DNA of 64,000 nt from a virus. Lineage: Duplodnaviria > Caudoviricetes. Location of the stretch: the IMG/VR virus record IMGVR_UViG_3300021255_001361, positions 776-64,775 of that record; one strand, written 5' to 3'. Below the pieces are notes generated by a model. It saw only the letters and a list, made by a program, of their open reading frames with translations, did not search any database and was not told where the DNA came from. Position numbers and translations under genes: made by a program. Every line of letters begins with the position of its first letter. Positions within the stretch are counted from its first letter, which is position 1. This document shows positions 16,829 through 55,770 of the stretch, in pieces.

Positions 16829-18292
16829 TTAAAATAACATTGATGTATTCTCTGAAATTATATCAGCCTTATTTACTGCACTTAAATTAACAGTATTAGC
16901 ATAATCTATTCTCGCTTTAGATATAGCCAAATATTCTTTATTTAATTCTATACCTATGTACTTATAATTCTTGTTGGTAGCCCGGTTTTCAAAAACTACT
17001 GCTTTTCCGGTACTACCACTTCCGTTAAATGGATCGAGTATTACACCATCTTTAGGTGTTACAAGTTTGATCAAATACTGCATAAGTTCCATAGGTTTTA
17101 CAGTTGGATGTGTATTCTTTCTTAAATTATTACGCACATTTCCACTACCTGTAAGTAGTGACTGATTTTCTGTGTCTATCATACCTCCACCTACTTTATC
17201 TATAAACTTACCTAACCCCTCATCACGGTCCTTTTTACTTGCTTTTGCACAATAGAAGTACCTTGCGGCTGACCCACTATCCATGGGTGCTACATATCCG
17301 GTGTCTATACGTTTGGCATTACTTGTTTGACCAAAAGAAAGTTTATCAATACCTATTGCTTCTTTTGATTTTTGCCCTACGTCTCTAAAATCCTGTGATG
17401 TGGTCCTTCCACCATTACTTTCACTATATGGCATACCACCACAAACTTCTTGCTCGTCTGTTTCATCATAAGTAAGTATAACATTTGACGGGAATCTTCC
17501 GTTATGATCTATATTCAATGCCTCTGTTTCTTGAAACATACCTAATGCTTTGCCGGTTCTTTCATCACCAGCCATTGGGTTTTTCCTTGCTCCATTTGTA
17601 GTTATTACATCTGTACCTATTCTACACTCGTCAATATTAAGCCCACCGACACCATATTTAAGTACATTATCTGTAACACTGCCCTCACAAGGTTTTCTTG
17701 CTACAATAATAGGCTCATATGCTGGTTTTAGGGCTGTTCCCCAACCGTCCCACTTCTTGCCCTCTTCAGTCTGATAATTAACATTAACTGTTCTTGCGTG
17801 TTCATCAGCAGAATAGTCAGATGGTCTGGCACCGTAAAATTCATTGTTAGCGTTTAATCCCCAGTTGCCGGATTTAGTCTTTGTGCCATCTAAATTCTTC
17901 CACTCTTGGGTATTTGCGCTACCCGTAGTAAGTTTACTTTCAATCGCTTTGCCTAAATTCATAGATTTAGGAAACCCCGAACCATACAACCACATAATTG
18001 TATCTCTGATCTCAAATCCCGCATCTTCAATAGCAACTGCGATCCTGTGAAAAGTTCTACTACCACCAAATGCTAACAAATAACCACCTGGTTTTAACAC
18101 TTCATAACATTTCTTCCAAGTATCAGATTGAAAAGCTACACCGGAATTATCCCAGCCCTTGTTCATAAAATTTAATTCGTATGGTGGGTCCGTTACGATA
18201 CTGTCAATACTACTATGATCAATATGATCTAACATATCCAGCATACTGCCCTCGTACAGCGTATATATATCATTTTTACTATATAATTTCAC
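16829..18292 (-). CDS. Beta-class N6-adenine/N4-cytosine DNA methyltransferase
   Basis: SIVTDPPY precedes HPTVKP and DPFNGSGSTG; GTG start after AAGGTGG. Confidence 0.9.
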   Translation of the reverse strand: MKLYSKNDIYTLYEGSMLDMLDHIDHSSIDSIVTDPPYELNFMNKGWDNSGVAFQSDTWKKCYEVLKPGGYLLAFGGSRTFHRIAVAIEDAGFEIRDTIMWLYGSGFPKSMNLGKAIESKLTTGSANTQEWKNLDGTKTKSGNWGLNANNEFYGARPSDYSADEHARTVNVNYQTEEGKKWDGWGTALKPAYEPIIVARKPCEGSVTDNVLKYGVGGLNIDECRIGTDVITTNGARKNPMAGDERTGKALGMFQETEALNIDHNGRFPSNVILTYDETDEQEVCGGMPYSESNGGRTTSQDFRDVGQKSKEAIGIDKLSFGQTSNAKRIDTGYVAPMDSGSAARYFYCAKASKKDRDEGLGKFIDKVGGGMIDTENQSLLTGSGNVRNNLRKNTHPTVKPMELMQYLIKLVTPKDGVILDPFNGSGSTGKAVVFENRATNKNYKYIGIELNKEYLAISKARIDYANTVNLSAVNKADIISENTSMLF

Positions 18293-18305: not shown

Positions 18306-18515
18306 TTAAAATAATTTATTACTCTTGCACTCCTGTACAAACATATTATCAAATATAGCCATAAGTACATCGACTACAATACTGTTTCCAGCTTGTTTAT
18401 ACTTTTGTGTGTTACTTACTGTAAGTTTCTCATAGTCCTCATCTTTAACTCCCATAAGTCTAAAACATTCTTTTGGTGTTAATTTTCTAATCCTATACTG
18501 TATCTCATTATTCAT
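18306..18515 (-). CDS. C5 cytosine methyltransferase C-terminal peptide (motifs IX-X)
   Basis: YRIRKLTPKECFRLMG...YKQAGNSIVVDVL; has its own AGGAG RBS. Confidence 0.85.
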   Translation of the reverse strand: MNNEIQYRIRKLTPKECFRLMGVKDEDYEKLTVSNTQKYKQAGNSIVVDVLMAIFDNMFVQECKSNKLF

Positions 18516-18535
18516 ATCAATATCACTCCTATTCT

Positions 18536-19036
18536 CTATTGTAATTTTCCTTCATCGTTACGAACTATACGAATTGCACTTGCCTCTAACACATAATTAT
18601 CCTTTTGAACTGTTGATAATGTATTTGCTATGTGATCAGATTGTATTTCAAGTCGTTGTTCAAGATTTTTTGATAATCTGTCACTTGGGTTATCTGGGTC
18701 TCTACCCACACTCCGTACTATTAAAGGTTCAATTTCCTTTAATTCTGAATAAACTTCTAACAACATTGATGTACTGGTAACTGTAGTTAGTGCGTTAGCA
18801 ACATCTTCATTAGACAATTCTAATTTCTGTTCATACTTATTTTCTACAGAATCCCTACCTCTAATTGCAGCTGGTTTGACCTCTTTTATCAAAATTTTCA
18901 CCTCTCCATCCGTATGATAACAGGGTATTGTGGGTGATATATATAAGGGGTCATAGACACGATTACTCTGGTCATAATTGTATATATGAATTGAACCTAA
19001 ACAGTTACATCTTGTAGCAGTTGTGTCACATTTCAA
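18536..19036 (-). CDS. C5 methyltransferase variable-region (TRD-like) modules
   Basis: Repeated units QSNRVYD..ISPTI, AIRGR..EQKLE..ANALTT, SVGR..EQRLE..ANTLSTVQKDNYVLE. Confidence 0.7.
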   Translation of the reverse strand: MKCDTTATRCNCLGSIHIYNYDQSNRVYDPLYISPTIPCYHTDGEVKILIKEVKPAAIRGRDSVENKYEQKLELSNEDVANALTTVTSTSMLLEVYSELKEIEPLIVRSVGRDPDNPSDRLSKNLEQRLEIQSDHIANTLSTVQKDNYVLEASAIRIVRNDEGKLQ

Positions 19037-19315
19037 TTAAATCATCCCCCCTTCCACTTCCTATAAGTACCTTTGGTTCTAAATTTCCACCTCCACAACA
19101 GTTAAGTGTTGGGGCTAAACCTTTATTGGAATATACAACATTACTTTGATGTGTACCTGTACCGCCATCTATATAACCTAAAATAAGAGCGTTATCACTT
19201 CTGGCTAACAAAGTACGACATAATTTACCAGTACCATCAAATATTCCATCTTGAAATTTATCAGATTTACCATAGTATATACTTCCCACAAATATGCACT
19301 CTCTCTCTCTGCCAT
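19026..19315 (-). CDS. TRD-like module, out of frame with its ATG at the (AG)6 tract
   Basis: AGAGGA RBS and ATG at 19315, then (AG)6 at 19299-19310; downstream frame RTLLAR..HQSNVVYSNKGLAPTL..EPKVLI. Confidence 0.65.
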
Positions 19316-19317
19316 AT

Positions 19318-19470
19318 TTACTGTTCCTCTAATATATAACTATCTGCGTAACCATGTCCTCCAGCTAATAAAGTTTTAGACACACCATCTACACTTATCA
19401 CTTCGGAAGATTGACTACTTGATAGTCTACCATAACTTATAACGACTGATGTGCTTATTTCATCTGACAT
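19318..19470 (-). CDS. TRD-like module (50 aa, MSDEIST...SKTLLAGGHGYADSYILEEQ)
   Basis: Hand-translated; GGAG RBS 7 nt upstream; overlaps the previous module. Confidence 0.6.
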   Translation of the reverse strand: MSDEISTSVVISYGRLSSSQSSEVISVDGVSKTLLAGGHGYADSYILEEQ

Positions 19471-19603
19471 TCTAAAACTCCATTTATTGTATCATACCCT
19501 GTTCCAGGACCTTTATAATCCCTTGCACATAAAGTTTTGGTTGTTTCTTTATTTACATTGTCAATGAACTTTAGATTAAATTGAATAGGTACTCTCTCTC
19601 TCT
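19455..19603 (-). CDS. TRD-like module without its own start (RERVPIQF...TLCARDYKGPGT...GVLECQMK)
   Basis: Hand-translated; TLxARDYKG motif typical of phage C5 MTase variable regions; begins at (AG)6 19592-19603. Confidence 0.6.
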
Positions 19604-19612
19604 GCCAATTTT

Positions 19613-19651
19613 CCCATCTGATTTAATGTCAGATGGGTTATTCAGTTTGGG
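19613..19651 (-). promoter_or_regulatory. Putative -1 programmed ribosomal frameshift cassette
   Basis: In-frame heptamer C_CCA_AAC (19651-19645), 7-nt spacer beginning with the TGA stop, 9-bp stem CCCATCTGA/TCAGATGGG. Confidence 0.65.
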
Positions 19652-20352
19652 AGTTGACCACTTACAATCAATTTATCTATAAGTTCCTGTGCTTTTTCGG
19701 AATTGATATAATACTTTTCATCTACATCAGTTTCCAACACATCTTTAAGTCTTTTATCTAACACCTTTGGTTTTGGAAACTCAAACACTTTATTCTCTGA
19801 TCTTAAAATACTAACCATGAAACATCTTTCTCTGTTCTGTGGTACTCCATAATCTTTTGCGTTAAGTAATTTATACTGATTATTATAACCTAACTTTGTA
19901 AGAAATGAAGTCCATTCTGAAAACAATTTAAGATTATCATTACTGATTACCTGTGGCACGTTCTCCATCAGTAAATACTGTGGGAGTTCTTTACATTCAG
20001 TAAGTATTCTCTCAACTTCCCACAACAAACTTGATGAAGTACCACTCTCTCTCTGCATGCCCTTACGTTTTCCGGCCACCGATAAATCGGTACAAGGAAA
20101 CGAATATGTCATAAGGTATTTGTAATTCTGGGTGTCTGTAATATTTATATCGTCTGCGTGAACATTCTTCACATCTGATACTTCAAAGTTAGTTCCATGA
20201 ATTTCATTGTATGACTGCATGGCATACTTATCAAATTCACATACAAACCAATGTTCCATAGGTACACCCAAGTATTTTAAAGCTAATGCCTGTGATCCAT
20301 ACCCGGCAAATAACTCTATAAGTCTTATAGGATTTTTAAACTTATAACTCAT
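19642..20352 (-). CDS. dcm: C5 cytosine methyltransferase catalytic core (motifs I-VIII)
   Basis: LIELFAGYG (I), FPCTDLS (IV), LLMENV (VI), GVPQNRERCF (VIII); motifs IX-X absent. Confidence 0.9.
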   Translation of the reverse strand: MSYKFKNPIRLIELFAGYGSQALALKYLGVPMEHWFVCEFDKYAMQSYNEIHGTNFEVSDVKNVHADDINITDTQNYKYLMTYSFPCTDLSVAGKRKGMQRESGTSSSLLWEVERILTECKELPQYLLMENVPQVISNDNLKLFSEWTSFLTKLGYNNQYKLLNAKDYGVPQNRERCFMVSILRSENKVFEFPKPKVLDKRLKDVLETDVDEKYYINSEKAQELIDKLIVSGQLPN

Positions 20353-21356: not shown

Positions 21357-22102
21357 CAAATTGTTATCTTACAGGCTCTTTATCCTGTAATTCTAACACT
21401 TGTTGTTCGTGTTAGTTCAGACTATATCTCAAACTTTATCATAACTTTCAAAACGCCCATTAATTTTGTTTCTTCTGCGCTCTAAATCAACTTTGTGTTG
21501 TACTTTTTGATGATCTATTCGGTTAGTTAATTCCAAGTTTTCAAGTCTATTATCCAACTTATCTCCATTTATATGATGTACAATCTCATTAGGTTTTAGA
21601 GGTCTACCTAAATGGTTTTCCATTACTCGTCTGTGTAAAGCGTATCTCTCATTTACAGTTGATACATATACATATCCATCATATATGTATGTTCTATCTA
21701 ATCTGCCATTACCTCTACGCTTTAAACCCAATTTACAGGCTTTATGTAGAATTGCAGATTGACTTTTATTAAGATAGTTTGCACATTTTTTAACACCTAA
21801 TACTGAATAATTCTCAACTAACCATTTTACATCATCTTGTGTCCACCATTTATACATAAATATCACCTCGCTTTCACAAGGAATATTTTATCATAACTTG
21901 GTATGTTTTGTAAAGTTATATTATAAAGTCAACGGGCACTCGTGTTCCTTTTATTATTTGTGCTATTCAAGGATTAGTCGTTGCACCTTTTACCTACTTT
22001 TATGCACTTCGGTAACTTGGCACAGGATCAGCATTTCAGCTTTCCCTGTTTTCACCCGTTTACGCATTTAGTAACTCACGCTACTAACGCCCAATTTACT
22101 TT
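21357..22102 (-). mobile_element. Group I intron (746 nt) in polA
   Basis: 5' exon ends in U, intron ends in G; R CAACGACUA and S GAGAUAUAGUC give P7 (21975-79/21420-24); P9 hairpin 21369-21390; splicing restores SSQDP|NLQNIP in frame. Confidence 0.9.
21429..21857 (-). CDS. Intron-encoded HNH homing endonuclease
   Basis: LHRRVMENHLGRPLKPNEIVHHINGDKLDNRLENL; lies between R and S (P8 loop). Confidence 0.9.
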   Translation of the reverse strand: MYKWWTQDDVKWLVENYSVLGVKKCANYLNKSQSAILHKACKLGLKRRGNGRLDRTYIYDGYVYVSTVNERYALHRRVMENHLGRPLKPNEIVHHINGDKLDNRLENLELTNRIDHQKVQHKVDLERRRNKINGRFESYDKV

Positions 22103-23389
22103 AGGGTCTTGGCTTGACATTCTTCCTGTTACTGCACCATACTGTCTAAAATTACAATGTATTCTTCCGTCATTAGGATTTACACAGCTTGGTAGTTTAT
22201 CAATATAGGTGCTTATCAGCTTCTCAATTTCTCTGTAATCTATAAGTGCTTTGGACAACGGTGTATCCCACTTTAACAGTATATCTCCACCTGTTCCTCT
22301 TGGTGCTTTCTTATCAACTACTTCATATCCAAGAATATCATAAAACAGAATTGCAAGCTGTGTCGGACTTGCTATATTGATAGGATTATCAAGTTTACAG
22401 TCTGTATGCTTCAATCTGTAGCTTTCAATCTTGTCATTAAACTCACTCAAACGCTCATAGAACGCATTTAATTTATCTTTTAATATATTATTATATCTTT
22501 CAGATAAAACTTGATTATAAGTCAAATCAAGAAGTATTCCATTATCTTCCATATCAGCTACTACTGATATACAAGGCATTTCTATATTCTTAAATACCCA
22601 ATACAGATTTCGCATATCTTCTCTATCGCTGTCTGATCGTAAATACTTTTTCTGGTACTCATAATACTCATAAGTAATTACAGGGTCATGTGCGGCATAA
22701 AGTACAGCAGTCTGTAATGGCACCATTGTAAATGGTATTCCCTTGAATAACTCTTCAAACGTAAACTCATCTTCTTTACCATTAAGTACATACTTCTGGT
22801 GGAGTTTTTTAAGTGCATTGTTTGGTTCATTTTCATTAAGCAATCTTGCGGCTAAATAACAATCCCAAGTGCAGTATATGTCTTTAAGTCCAACTCTGCT
22901 ACGCATAAATCTCATATCAAACTTGGCATTAAACATTACTATTTCTATCTTACTTTGTATTAATCGGTCAAAGTGCTGTTTAATTACATCTACTGATAAC
23001 TGATTTGGTATAGGCATATTAGTTATGTATGATACATGATTAATCGGTATGTATGCACCTTGTCTGTTTGGTGTATAGATACATATACCAGCTATTTCAT
23101 CCTGTAAAGGGTCAAGCCCTGTTGTTTCTGTATCTATACTAATTACACCATTTTTAATTGCACCATCAATATATTCAATTAAGTCATTTTCCTCTGTAAT
23201 GACTAAATAAGAATCTTTGAATTTACCAAGATGTAACTCTACCAACTTCTGCGCTTGGGTTATTCTATCAAGTAAGCTGTTCCCACCTCTTACAGTAGGA
23301 ACAGCTTTTCTTGTGGAATTAGACTGCTTTGCTAACTTCATATCGTTAGCCTTACTATTTGTTCTTGTAGGTAAATCAAATAGTGGCAT
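22103..23389 (-). CDS. polA: Family A DNA polymerase, exon 1 (3'-5' exonuclease and thumb)
   Basis: IDTETTGL (ExoI), FNAKFD (ExoII), YAAHD (ExoIII), AVTGRMSSQDP. Confidence 0.93.
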
Positions 23390-24191: not shown

Positions 24192-25217
24192 TTAAAATAA
24201 TCTACCTATTCCCTTTTTCTGATCATTCATCTTTGAACAAAATTCCCTGTATTGTTTAGTATATTCGTAGCTATCTTTAAATACTGTATTAACCGCCTTA
24301 TATATCAAAGGTTCATGTTCTTTTGTAACTTGTAATTCATATGTTAAATTTTTACCACTAAACGGACACCCTATACAACCAGTCCTATATAACCCATATT
24401 CTGTATAGCATTTACTGTGGTGTACCCCAAATGTCTGTTCATACCATCTTCTATCTTCCATTGAAAACCAGAATAAAGGTCTATACTGATCTTCTTTATC
24501 AGCATACTGCGAATAGCAGTTAGAATATATATTTGCTCTTATACCACCCTCATTTCTGCGCACACCATTAACAGATAAATCTATATTATGTAATTTACTG
24601 TATTTGGCAACTACTTTTTTCTTTGAGTACACACAGCATTTTGATGATACTTTAAAAGTTGGTGGGTGCGCAATTAAAAACTCTTTCAACCATTTATTAT
24701 ACTCAATATTAAACCGGTGGAATTTAAGGTCTTTACTTGTATCATTACACATATTACACCACCACTTTAATGCAAGTTCACAATCTGGATATTCTTCTTT
24801 AAGCTGATCAAAAGATTTATCTTCAAACTTAAACCCATGCTGCTGCAAACGTGATAACATATCAGACACCCTTTTAGACAAAAACGGTTGACCAAACTCT
24901 TTACAACAAAGTGGTATAGGCTTAATCGCTCTCTCTCTAGCAATTTTGATTTTATACTTATCTTCAAGGTAATCTAAATGATCTTTAGTCGCTTGGTACT
25001 CTAACCCTGTATTACACCAAACATAATTTACTTTCTCATCAATATCTACCTTGTGTATTAAATCTAACATAACATCACTATCAGCACCACCAGATACTGC
25101 ACACATAATATTCTTATATTTTGGATCATTTATTACACTATCAGCCTTTGTAAAAGCATCAAACACAGTAAAGTTTCCCCTACATCTTGCTAAAACATTG
25201 TCAAGATATTTACTCAT
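24192..25217 (-). CDS. PAPS reductase-family (PP-loop) protein
   Basis: AVSGGADSD, NTGLEY, GVRRNEG, RTGCIGCPF. Confidence 0.85.
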   Translation of the reverse strand: MSKYLDNVLARCRGNFTVFDAFTKADSVINDPKYKNIMCAVSGGADSDVMLDLIHKVDIDEKVNYVWCNTGLEYQATKDHLDYLEDKYKIKIARERAIKPIPLCCKEFGQPFLSKRVSDMLSRLQQHGFKFEDKSFDQLKEEYPDCELALKWWCNMCNDTSKDLKFHRFNIEYNKWLKEFLIAHPPTFKVSSKCCVYSKKKVVAKYSKLHNIDLSVNGVRRNEGGIRANIYSNCYSQYADKEDQYRPLFWFSMEDRRWYEQTFGVHHSKCYTEYGLYRTGCIGCPFSGKNLTYELQVTKEHEPLIYKAVNTVFKDSYEYTKQYREFCSKMNDQKKGIGRLF

Positions 25218-55658: not shown

Positions 55659-55770
55659 ATTCTGTTCTCTCCTTTTACATTCTTTTATATCCGTTTAGCT
55701 TGTAATTCCGCAGGCACGGTACTGCGATTGAATGTACGTTTGTTTAATGGTCGTTACGCTCGACTATATA

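Follow-up and report, generated by a model that had tools for sequence, protein, structure and literature searches.

Bacillus phages encode C5 cytosine methyltransferases (M.SPRI, M.Phi3TI and their relatives) in which several short, exchangeable target recognition domains (TRDs) are arranged in tandem between motifs VIII and IX. These multispecific enzymes, for which a role in protection from host restriction is presumed, are single polypeptides without repeat tracts or frame breaks. The locus described here is the cytosine methyltransferase region (20352-18306, minus strand) of a 64,000-nucleotide stretch of viral DNA, positions 776 to 64,775 of IMG/VR record IMGVR_UViG_3300021255_001361 (Duplodnaviria; Caudoviricetes); the whole stretch is called the window below and represents almost the entire 64,775-base record. 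As in M.SPRI and M.Phi3TI, the locus is phage-encoded and has tandem TRDs between motifs VIII and IX, but in the window these TRDs are spread over several frames and open reading frames (ORFs) and do not form one continuous polypeptide. Our reading, to which a probability of roughly 0.7 is given, is that this is a hypervariable, conserved locus of rumen and gut Firmicute-type phages, encoding a multi-TRD C5 methyltransferase that is made in parts, switched by simple repeats and used in anti-restriction.

Comparison with described systems

Programmed -1 frameshifting in prokaryotes (dnaX, IS3-family transposases, the G/GT tail chaperones of phages) is carried out at cassettes composed of an X_XXY_YYZ heptamer, a spacer of 5-9 nucleotides (nt) and a stem-loop, giving rise to a short and an extended product. 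The gene for the catalytic core of the window enzyme ends in a cassette of this type, which differs from the described ones in that the A-site codon is AAC and not AAG, the stop codon lies directly after the heptamer, and a downstream repeat would gate the extension.

Among the two-subunit C5 enzymes, M.AquI (CYCGRG) is encoded by adjacent genes, alpha containing motifs I-VIII, with or without part of the variable region, and beta containing the rest together with motifs IX-X (PMC3404938). The same alpha/beta plan is found in three relatives of the window locus (L082, L083 and L205). Unlike in M.AquI, however, the phage beta gene has several tandem TRDs, small TRD ORFs are located between alpha and beta, alpha ends in the frameshift-type cassette, repeats gate the parts, and the beta gene of the window is broken. 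In M.EcoHK31I (YGGCCR), motif IX comes in trans from a second, small polypeptide (PMC3404938). This is the sole precedent for the usefulness of something like the 69-amino-acid (aa) motif IX-X ORF of the window, although the small subunit is a conserved feature of M.EcoHK31I, whereas the window ORF is the product of a 397-nt deletion and has both motifs IX and X. Fragment complementation of C5 enzymes is also on record, and splits in the variable region are tolerated, those in the distal variable region of M.SssI being complemented poorly (PMC3404938).

The C5 methyltransferase gene hpyAVIBM of Helicobacter pylori contains 4-5 AG units, whose number differs between strains and shifts the frame (PMC3411764). 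As in hpyAVIBM and the Type III Mod phasevarions, short repeats are present inside the ORFs of the window locus, their length sets the frame, and differences between close genomes are recurrent. Unlike these genes, which are found on the bacterial chromosome and have one on/off tract, the locus belongs to a phage and has several tracts, each of them gating a different part. Its human-gut relatives depart from the bacterial on/off tract in a further way, since a single tract appears to choose among three frame outcomes.

Repeat-switched methyltransferases of bacteria, two-subunit C5 enzymes and multispecific phage enzymes are all known, and we have not found their combination in a phage reported. 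Searching the open-access literature did not yield a phage C5 methyltransferase described as repeat-switched or frameshifted, nor a frameshift cassette in any DNA methyltransferase.

Organisation of the locus

The locus is wholly on the minus strand and consists of six frames or ORFs in the window, across which the PF00145 motifs I, IV (PC), VI (ENV), VIII, IX and X are present in order. By this motif content it would encode a C5 cytosine methyltransferase, whose methylating activity is predicted. Its pieces and signals are listed from the highest coordinate downwards (dN and dS, nonsynonymous and synonymous substitution rates):

19642..20352, minus strand: alpha gene, catalytic core with motifs I-VIII (FAGYGS, FPC, ENV, QNRER), 236 aa; PF00145, E 5e-51, profile positions 2-209
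20045..20054, minus strand: core (AG)5 tract, codons M-Q-R-E-S, read as in frame
19645..19651, minus strand: C_CCA_AAC heptamer (X_XXY_YYZ as read in the core frame), with the TGA stop (19642-19644) directly after it
19613..19637, minus strand: perfect 9-bp hairpin CCCATCTGA / TCAGATGGG, 7-nt loop, separated from the heptamer by 7 nt; -14 kcal/mol, z -4.2, fourth among 422 windows of the gene
19592..19603, minus strand: AG tract 1, (AG)6, in the linker leading to module 1; with respect to the core -1 frame, this is the off length
19455..19592, minus strand: TRD module 1 (..TLCARDYKGP..GVLE), open frame without start codon; dN 0.000 and dS 0.32 against L087
19318..19470, minus strand: TRD module 2, 50-aa ATG ORF with GGAG 7 nt upstream; dN/dS 0.05-0.08 at dS 0.34
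19299..19315, minus strand: ATG GC followed by AG tract 2, (AG)6 (AG run 19299-19310), 5' end of the module 3 ORF, off length; (AG)5 in relatives
19026..19298, minus strand: module 3, two TRDs in translation (..CRTLLARSDN..ALIL; ..HQSNVVYSNKGLAPTLN..KVL); dN/dS 0.11-0.41
18536..19036, minus strand: module 4, start of the beta gene; TTG start with GGGGGG 9 nt upstream, 166 aa, three TRDs and 13 residues of a fourth, premature stop; dN/dS 0-0.37
18545..18548, minus strand: junction of the 397-nt deletion, with 4-nt microhomology (blastn of the window against L082)
18306..18515, minus strand: motif IX-X (RKLTPKECFRLMGV; GNSIVVDV), 69-aa ATG ORF; PF00145, E 2.6e-12, profile positions 271-322

An earlier reading, made from the letters of the window alone (the sequence-only reading), had described a six-piece enzyme composed of a core, four TRD-like ORFs and a motif IX-X peptide. 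The pieces and their coordinates are real, with the correction that module 1 is an open frame without a start and not an ORF. The four TRD pieces hold at least seven TRD-like modules, recognised by a T-L/T-I motif and by ends in VLE, ILE or LIE, and the stump of an eighth; their status as TRDs rests on sequence pattern only. A Pfam search of these pieces returned no family. In a PDB sequence search with the beta protein, motifs IX-X were matched and the TRDs were not, the motif IX-X piece of the window aligning to motifs IX-X of Dcm-type and HhaI structures; as the PDB matches are limited to these motifs, no target specificity is predictable.

An identical 17-mer, TGGCAGAGAGAGAGAGT, is found at two module boundaries and includes both junction AG tracts. 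The sequence-only reading had recognised this repeat, giving it as a 16-mer, and had proposed that at both places the loss of one AG unit restores the frame into the next module. This holds for tract 2, where with one unit less the ATG at 19315 is in frame with module 3. At tract 1 the same loss puts module 1 in the core -1 frame and does not join it to the ATG that precedes the tract, a join for which (AG)7 or (AG)4 would be needed. As for the third tract noticed then, the (AG)5 at 20045-20054, its position in frame within the core agrees with our reading of the sequence.

Length variation of the repeat tracts

Every piece of the locus has cluster mates at least 90% identical in other public assemblies. 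Near relatives were fetched through exact-protein look-ups (contigs L082-L091 and L207-L212, from about 14 other samples in SRA/ENA, 90-100% identical), and among these near-identical phages all three AG tracts are found as (AG)5 or (AG)6. The lengths observed, and the effect of the variant on the frame, are as follows:

Tract 1: five AG units in eight samples, six in three (window, L082, L084); with six, module 1 is out of frame
Tract 2: five AG units in nine samples, six in the window genome alone; with six, the ORF of module 3 is out of frame
Core tract: five AG units in every other relative read, six in L207; with six, the core is frameshifted past motif IV
AG tract following the start of the beta gene in the sister lineage (L083, L089-L091): 5 units in three, 6 in L089; with 6, the beta gene is off
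Two poly-G runs: lengths of 6-9 and 9-10; the beta-gene frame is affected

The three (AG)6 alleles of tract 1 occur on three backgrounds, whose nearest neighbours, 0.3-1.4% divergent, are all (AG)5. Since (AG)6 is thus found on separate backgrounds next to (AG)5 neighbours, the length of this tract has changed repeatedly. The (AG)5 alleles of tract 2 give proteins beginning MAERECIFVGSIYYGK.. (P0022-P0026). In the core, (AG)5 is present in every other close relative read across the site, and the (AG)6 of L207 (ENA ERZ27291628) shifts the frame after motif IV, leaving ORFs of 128 and 108 aa; because this natural allele splits the core, the in-frame tract at 20045-20054 also switches.

At the thresholds used, simple repeats in the 64-kb window number six, half of which (3/6) are inside the 2-kb methyltransferase gene (Poisson P about 6e-6). 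AG/CT tracts of at least five units amount to four in this window, against a mean of 0.5 per window in Markov-1 simulations. The sole other (AG)5/(CT)5 tract in the 64 kb is located at 24929-24938, within a 341-aa ORF (24192-25217, minus strand).

Poly-G runs were also observed in other relatives. L002, the closest relative in IMG/VR, has in its 4990 region a G11 run about 20 codons past the ATG of a beta-type ORF, which leaves it out of frame and which G12 or G9 would restore, and L120 has runs of G9, G9 and G7. The poly-G of L002 and L120 and tract 2 of the window are different repeat types at the same functional position.

Selection on the modules and their shuffling

Against near relatives at dS 0.1-0.5, dN/dS is 0.03-0.06 for the core, 0.00 for module 1, 0.05-0.08 for module 2, 0.11-0.41 for module 3, 0-0.37 for module 4 and 0.02-0.08 for motifs IX-X. 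In the case of module 1, the ratio is 0-0.17 against the closest lineages and goes up to about 0.7 in very divergent pairs. The comparison of L199 with L003 serves as an internal control: each module gives 0.14-0.24 in its own frame, and the overlapping wrong frames give more than 2. Module order differs between these two loci. Over dS 0.3-1.2 the layout is retained, and every module frame has a dN/dS far below 1.

The same 50-aa ORF of module 2 was called in 9 other contigs, homologues of the module 3 TRDs are present in L002, L003, L199 and L203, and cores 97% identical to that of the window are joined to very different TRD sets (P0002, P0010). These ratios and rearrangements indicate that the modules are selected coding units that are shuffled. 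The relatives have at least two ORFs for the enzyme parts. Ordinary single-chain enzymes, of 330-410 aa, are also observed among close relatives.

Those of the checks proposed by the sequence-only reading that concern sequence comparison come out in its favour. Tract-length polymorphism is seen between independent samples, (AG)5 against (AG)6 at all three tracts, purifying selection acts on the modules (dN/dS 0-0.41 across pieces), and in relatives the same junctions again have breaks and repeats. Its central idea, a modular, repeat-switched locus and not a decaying one, is upheld by the tract polymorphism together with the purifying selection in every module frame.

The beta gene and its deletion in the window

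In L082 (375 aa) and L083 (359 aa) the beta ORF is intact, with the same start as in the window, three more modules, the linker ..ITIENRSDIDMNNEIQYRIRKLTP.. and motifs IX-X. When the window is aligned to L082 with blastn, two blocks are obtained (1-1808 / 1-1806 and 1805-2047 / 2200-2442), separated in L082 by the 397 nt that are deleted in the window, where three TRD modules have been removed and the beta ORF is cut. As 397 mod 3 = 1, motif IX-X is left out of frame. The sequence-only reading had taken this piece for a separately translated peptide with its own AGGAG ribosome-binding site; however, the AGGAG (18530-18526) corresponds to codons N-R-S of the linker in relatives. The separate 69-aa peptide is a by-product of the deletion and not a designed feature, and the conserved plan is that of an alpha gene plus a beta gene, in the manner of M.AquI.

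The break between the core and module 1

The C-terminus of the core is L-P-N followed by TGA (coding end CTC CCA AAC TGA), and many proteins with 72-82% identity to the window core are core-only ORFs with the same ..LPN end. Twelve bases at this point, CTCCCAAACTGA, are unchanged in nine lineages although neighbouring codons vary. In the nine lineages a hairpin of -13 to -23 kcal/mol is found 5-7 nt downstream of the heptamer, its sequence differing from one lineage to another; when a 45-nt window can contain it, it ranks with the few local structures of greatest stability in the gene. No stop interrupts the -1 frame from the heptamer into a TRD of the ..TLxARDYKG.. type. A heptamer, a spacer of 5-9 nt and a stable downstream structure, as is typical of -1 programmed frameshifting, are therefore all present in the cassette, and to them are added its conservation in nine lineages and a -1 frame encoding a selected module. 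Thus, the core-module 1 break looks like a programmed -1 ribosomal frameshift.

Further observations are consistent with this proposal. In L205/L206, a single -1 shift at the cassette would link the core to a 254-codon frame with TRDs and motifs IX-X, that is, a complete enzyme. In the (AG)5 alleles of the window lineage, no ATG, GTG or TTG is found ahead of the module 1 TRD, whose frame is continuous with the core -1 frame, and the (AG)6 of the window would end the -1 extension after about 24 codons, without a TRD. Taking into account that module 1 has no start codon and yet shows no amino-acid change at dS 0.32, it is most simply read as a -1 extension of the core.

An exact search for CAACTCCCAAACTGA in viral contigs gave 27 matches, with a methyltransferase only in the L003 contig; as this search had given only L003, the further cassette lineages were obtained through protein look-ups. 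Frameshift-type heptamers were also sought by eye at the module 1/2 and module 3/4 junctions, where none was convincing; these junctions look like overlapping starts, with an ATG behind GGAG and a TTG behind GGGGGG, respectively.

Two other explanations of the break were rejected. The hairpin as an intrinsic terminator is not followed by a T-run in any lineage. If TGA were a sense codon, the core frame would gain only 21 codons up to a TAA, without a TRD, and since the remaining breaks are frame changes, an alternative genetic code cannot explain the locus.

Distant relatives from the human gut

A large human-gut group, whose cores are 60-64% identical, lacks the heptamer. In this group, (AGAGC)3-15 or (GACA)4-17 is located exactly at the core/TRD junction, and (ACTT/TTAC)3-5 is found just ahead of the catalytic cysteine. 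Two successive TRDs are one base out of register in 62/64 loci, and the frame that crosses the first (TRD-A) to reach the second (TRD-B) is open in 71/72 (L006-L081, L123-L198), which hints at dual coding in this second frame across TRD-A. The core frame of the repeat-bearing loci reaches a stop in 32, TRD-B in 24 and TRD-A in 22, and in 14 of the 21 loci scored without a tract it reads into a TRD, with the limit that all the counts of this group include duplicate contigs, the IMG/VR and metagenome locus sets being overlapping.

The repeat of these phages appears to pick one of three products: a truncated core, the core with TRD-A, or the core with a linker across TRD-A and then TRD-B. From the junctions compared, the core/TRD boundary would be a regulatory hot spot for which three solutions exist, namely, reading in frame, a repeat, or a frameshift cassette.

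Proposed mechanism

In the ground plan seen in relatives, the alpha gene, containing motifs I-VIII, ends at the cassette, where it is proposed that some ribosomes slip by -1 and extend the core into TRD module 1. Optional small TRD ORFs in staggered frames come next, and the beta gene contains several TRDs together with motifs IX-X, as in M.AquI. Module junctions and ORF 5' ends carry short (AG)n and poly-G tracts whose length changes through slippage, which would switch the core, module 1, the module 3 ORF and the beta gene independently and give rise to many methylation repertoires per phage population. In these terms, the window represents a state in which the core is on, with (AG)5, module 1 and module 3 are off, each with (AG)6, and beta has been cut by the 397-nt deletion. 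Because both junction tracts are off and the beta gene carries the deletion, this allele is probably weakened or inactive, unless its fragments complement each other.

A bolder version may be tentatively formulated, which we consider doubtful, in which the target repertoire is set by three stacked stochastic layers: the -1 frameshift, on which the presence of TRD 1 on the core would depend; several independent slippery repeats, which would determine the modules and subunits available; and free TRD mini-proteins of 50-100 aa that would dock in trans on the alpha/beta core. If it were true, each virion lineage would carry a different protective methylation, and the locus would be a viral contingency system against host restriction enzymes.

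Weighing of the proposal and alternative explanations

Several points weigh against the reading of the locus as a repeat-switched methyltransferase made in parts. It offers no route into the enzyme for the free modules 2 and 3, of 50 and 95 aa. With regard to the cassette, most lineages have an ATG, GTG or TTG just past the hairpin, where termination-reinitiation could substitute for frameshifting; AAC in the A site is a weak slippery codon in Escherichia coli; and the extended core is a protein product predicted from the conserved cassette. With regard to the repeats, tracts of (AG)5-6 are short for a contingency locus, and their variation was seen between samples, reversible switching within a population being a prediction. 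An ENA scaffold and the Logan contig of SRR873598 (L210, L211) show the window allele with 100% identity, and for this reason an assembler artefact is excluded for the breaks, but both are probably derived from the sample that gave the window. Breaks inside modules in L086 and some other relatives point to some decay or assembly noise, and to these points the duplicates in the human-gut counts have to be added.

The best surviving alternative, although an unlikely one, is the full model of the sequence-only reading, in which the core, the small TRD ORFs and the IX-X piece are made separately and assembled in trans, the AG tracts choosing the TRD peptides. The small modules themselves speak for it: both module 2 and module 3 come with an ATG and a Shine-Dalgarno-like sequence of their own, the free 50-aa module 2 is strongly purified (dN/dS 0.05-0.08), and arrays of small TRD ORFs in staggered frames and shuffled order exist in L199, L201, L203 and L003. 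The other two components fit it badly, since module 1 has no start codon and the separate IX-X peptide is a deletion product that is not conserved. Moreover, no C5 enzyme is known to use a TRD separate from the core as well as from motif IX. Split enzymes provide precedents on both sides, as M.EcoHK31I has its small motif IX polypeptide and splitting within the variable region is tolerated by C5 enzymes, whereas the distal variable-region splits of M.SssI complemented poorly (PMC3404938).

It is less likely still that the out-of-frame modules constitute a silent store, rarely or never translated in place and recombined at the repeated linkers into alpha or beta, as occurs with silent pilin cassettes. 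Phages with near-identical cores do have very different module order and content, as illustrated by the 97% identical cores of P0002 and P0010 with their different TRD sets, the identical 17-mer is found at two module boundaries, and microhomology deletions occur, all of which would be expected from such a store. However, many modules have start codons and ribosome-binding-like sequences, the tracts right behind ATGs fit translational switching, and the strong selection on each module frame requires frequent expression.

Finally, that the locus is a pseudogene or an assembly artefact, with breaks due to errors, strain mixing or neutral decay and with incidental repeats, is very improbable and largely refuted, in spite of the three or more disabling features of the window allele, the in-module breaks of a few relatives (L086) and the odd poly-G lengths, which can be miscalled in Illumina assemblies, considering that the identical allele is present in two further assemblies, elsewhere the 64-kb phage carries long ORFs without breaks, the same layout persists at dS 0.3-1.2, dN/dS being far below 1 for all module frames, and the heptamer is invariant in nine lineages.

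Relevance of the locus

The repeat-switched, split enzyme proposed here would join within one virus the phase-variable methyltransferase of bacteria and the fixed multispecific counter-defence of phages. A phage population could in this way hedge over which restriction systems are evaded, the cost being a few slippery dinucleotides. It would likely be the first case of ribosomal frameshifting within a DNA methyltransferase, as far as can be predicted from sequence. The locus also provides natural material for the study of the minimal size of a TRD and of the need for a tether between the TRD and the catalytic core, and its relatives supply ready on and off alleles. Since members of this family abound in viromes of the rumen and the human gut, pipelines that label such loci as broken or hypothetical would overlook a common function.

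Similar sequences in databases and neighbouring genes

A blastn comparison of the gene with 50,697 phage records gave Dulem virus 39 as the sole match (20%), and tblastn with the beta protein retrieved ordinary C5 enzymes of Firmicute phages, with 30-50% identity. In the Streptococcus prophages Javan129, Javan131 and Javan141, the tblastn match of the beta protein covers 2-3 separately annotated features (DNA-cytosine methyltransferase, methylation subunit, hypothetical protein), and cultured streptococcal prophages may also carry split C5 enzymes.

The G+C content of the window is 33-43%, mostly about 35%, and its long ORFs, which are intact in the remainder of the phage, are on the minus strand. 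The gene order is family A DNA polymerase, cytosine methyltransferase region, N6/N4 methyltransferase and a sliding-clamp-like gene. The following neighbouring features were observed:

21360..22112, minus strand: family A DNA polymerase, split by a group I intron
21865..22112: group I intron (Rfam RF00028, 56.7 bits)
21429..21866: HNH endonuclease ORF carried by this intron
16829..18292, minus strand: second methyltransferase, PF01555, N6/N4 type, E 1.3e-32, beginning about 10 nt past the stop of the C5 locus
55665..55768, minus strand: Rfam GP20-a RNA motif among the structural genes, scoring 63.4 bits (gathering score 47.2)

In L199-L205 the polymerase is uninterrupted (771-787 aa), and in L084 and L089 GIY-YIG endonuclease ORFs are found among polymerase fragments. 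The Pfam match of the PF01555 protein extends over residues 29-459, which implies a very long insert between the catalytic and S-adenosylmethionine (AdoMet) motifs, and the protein has 427-471 aa across relatives.

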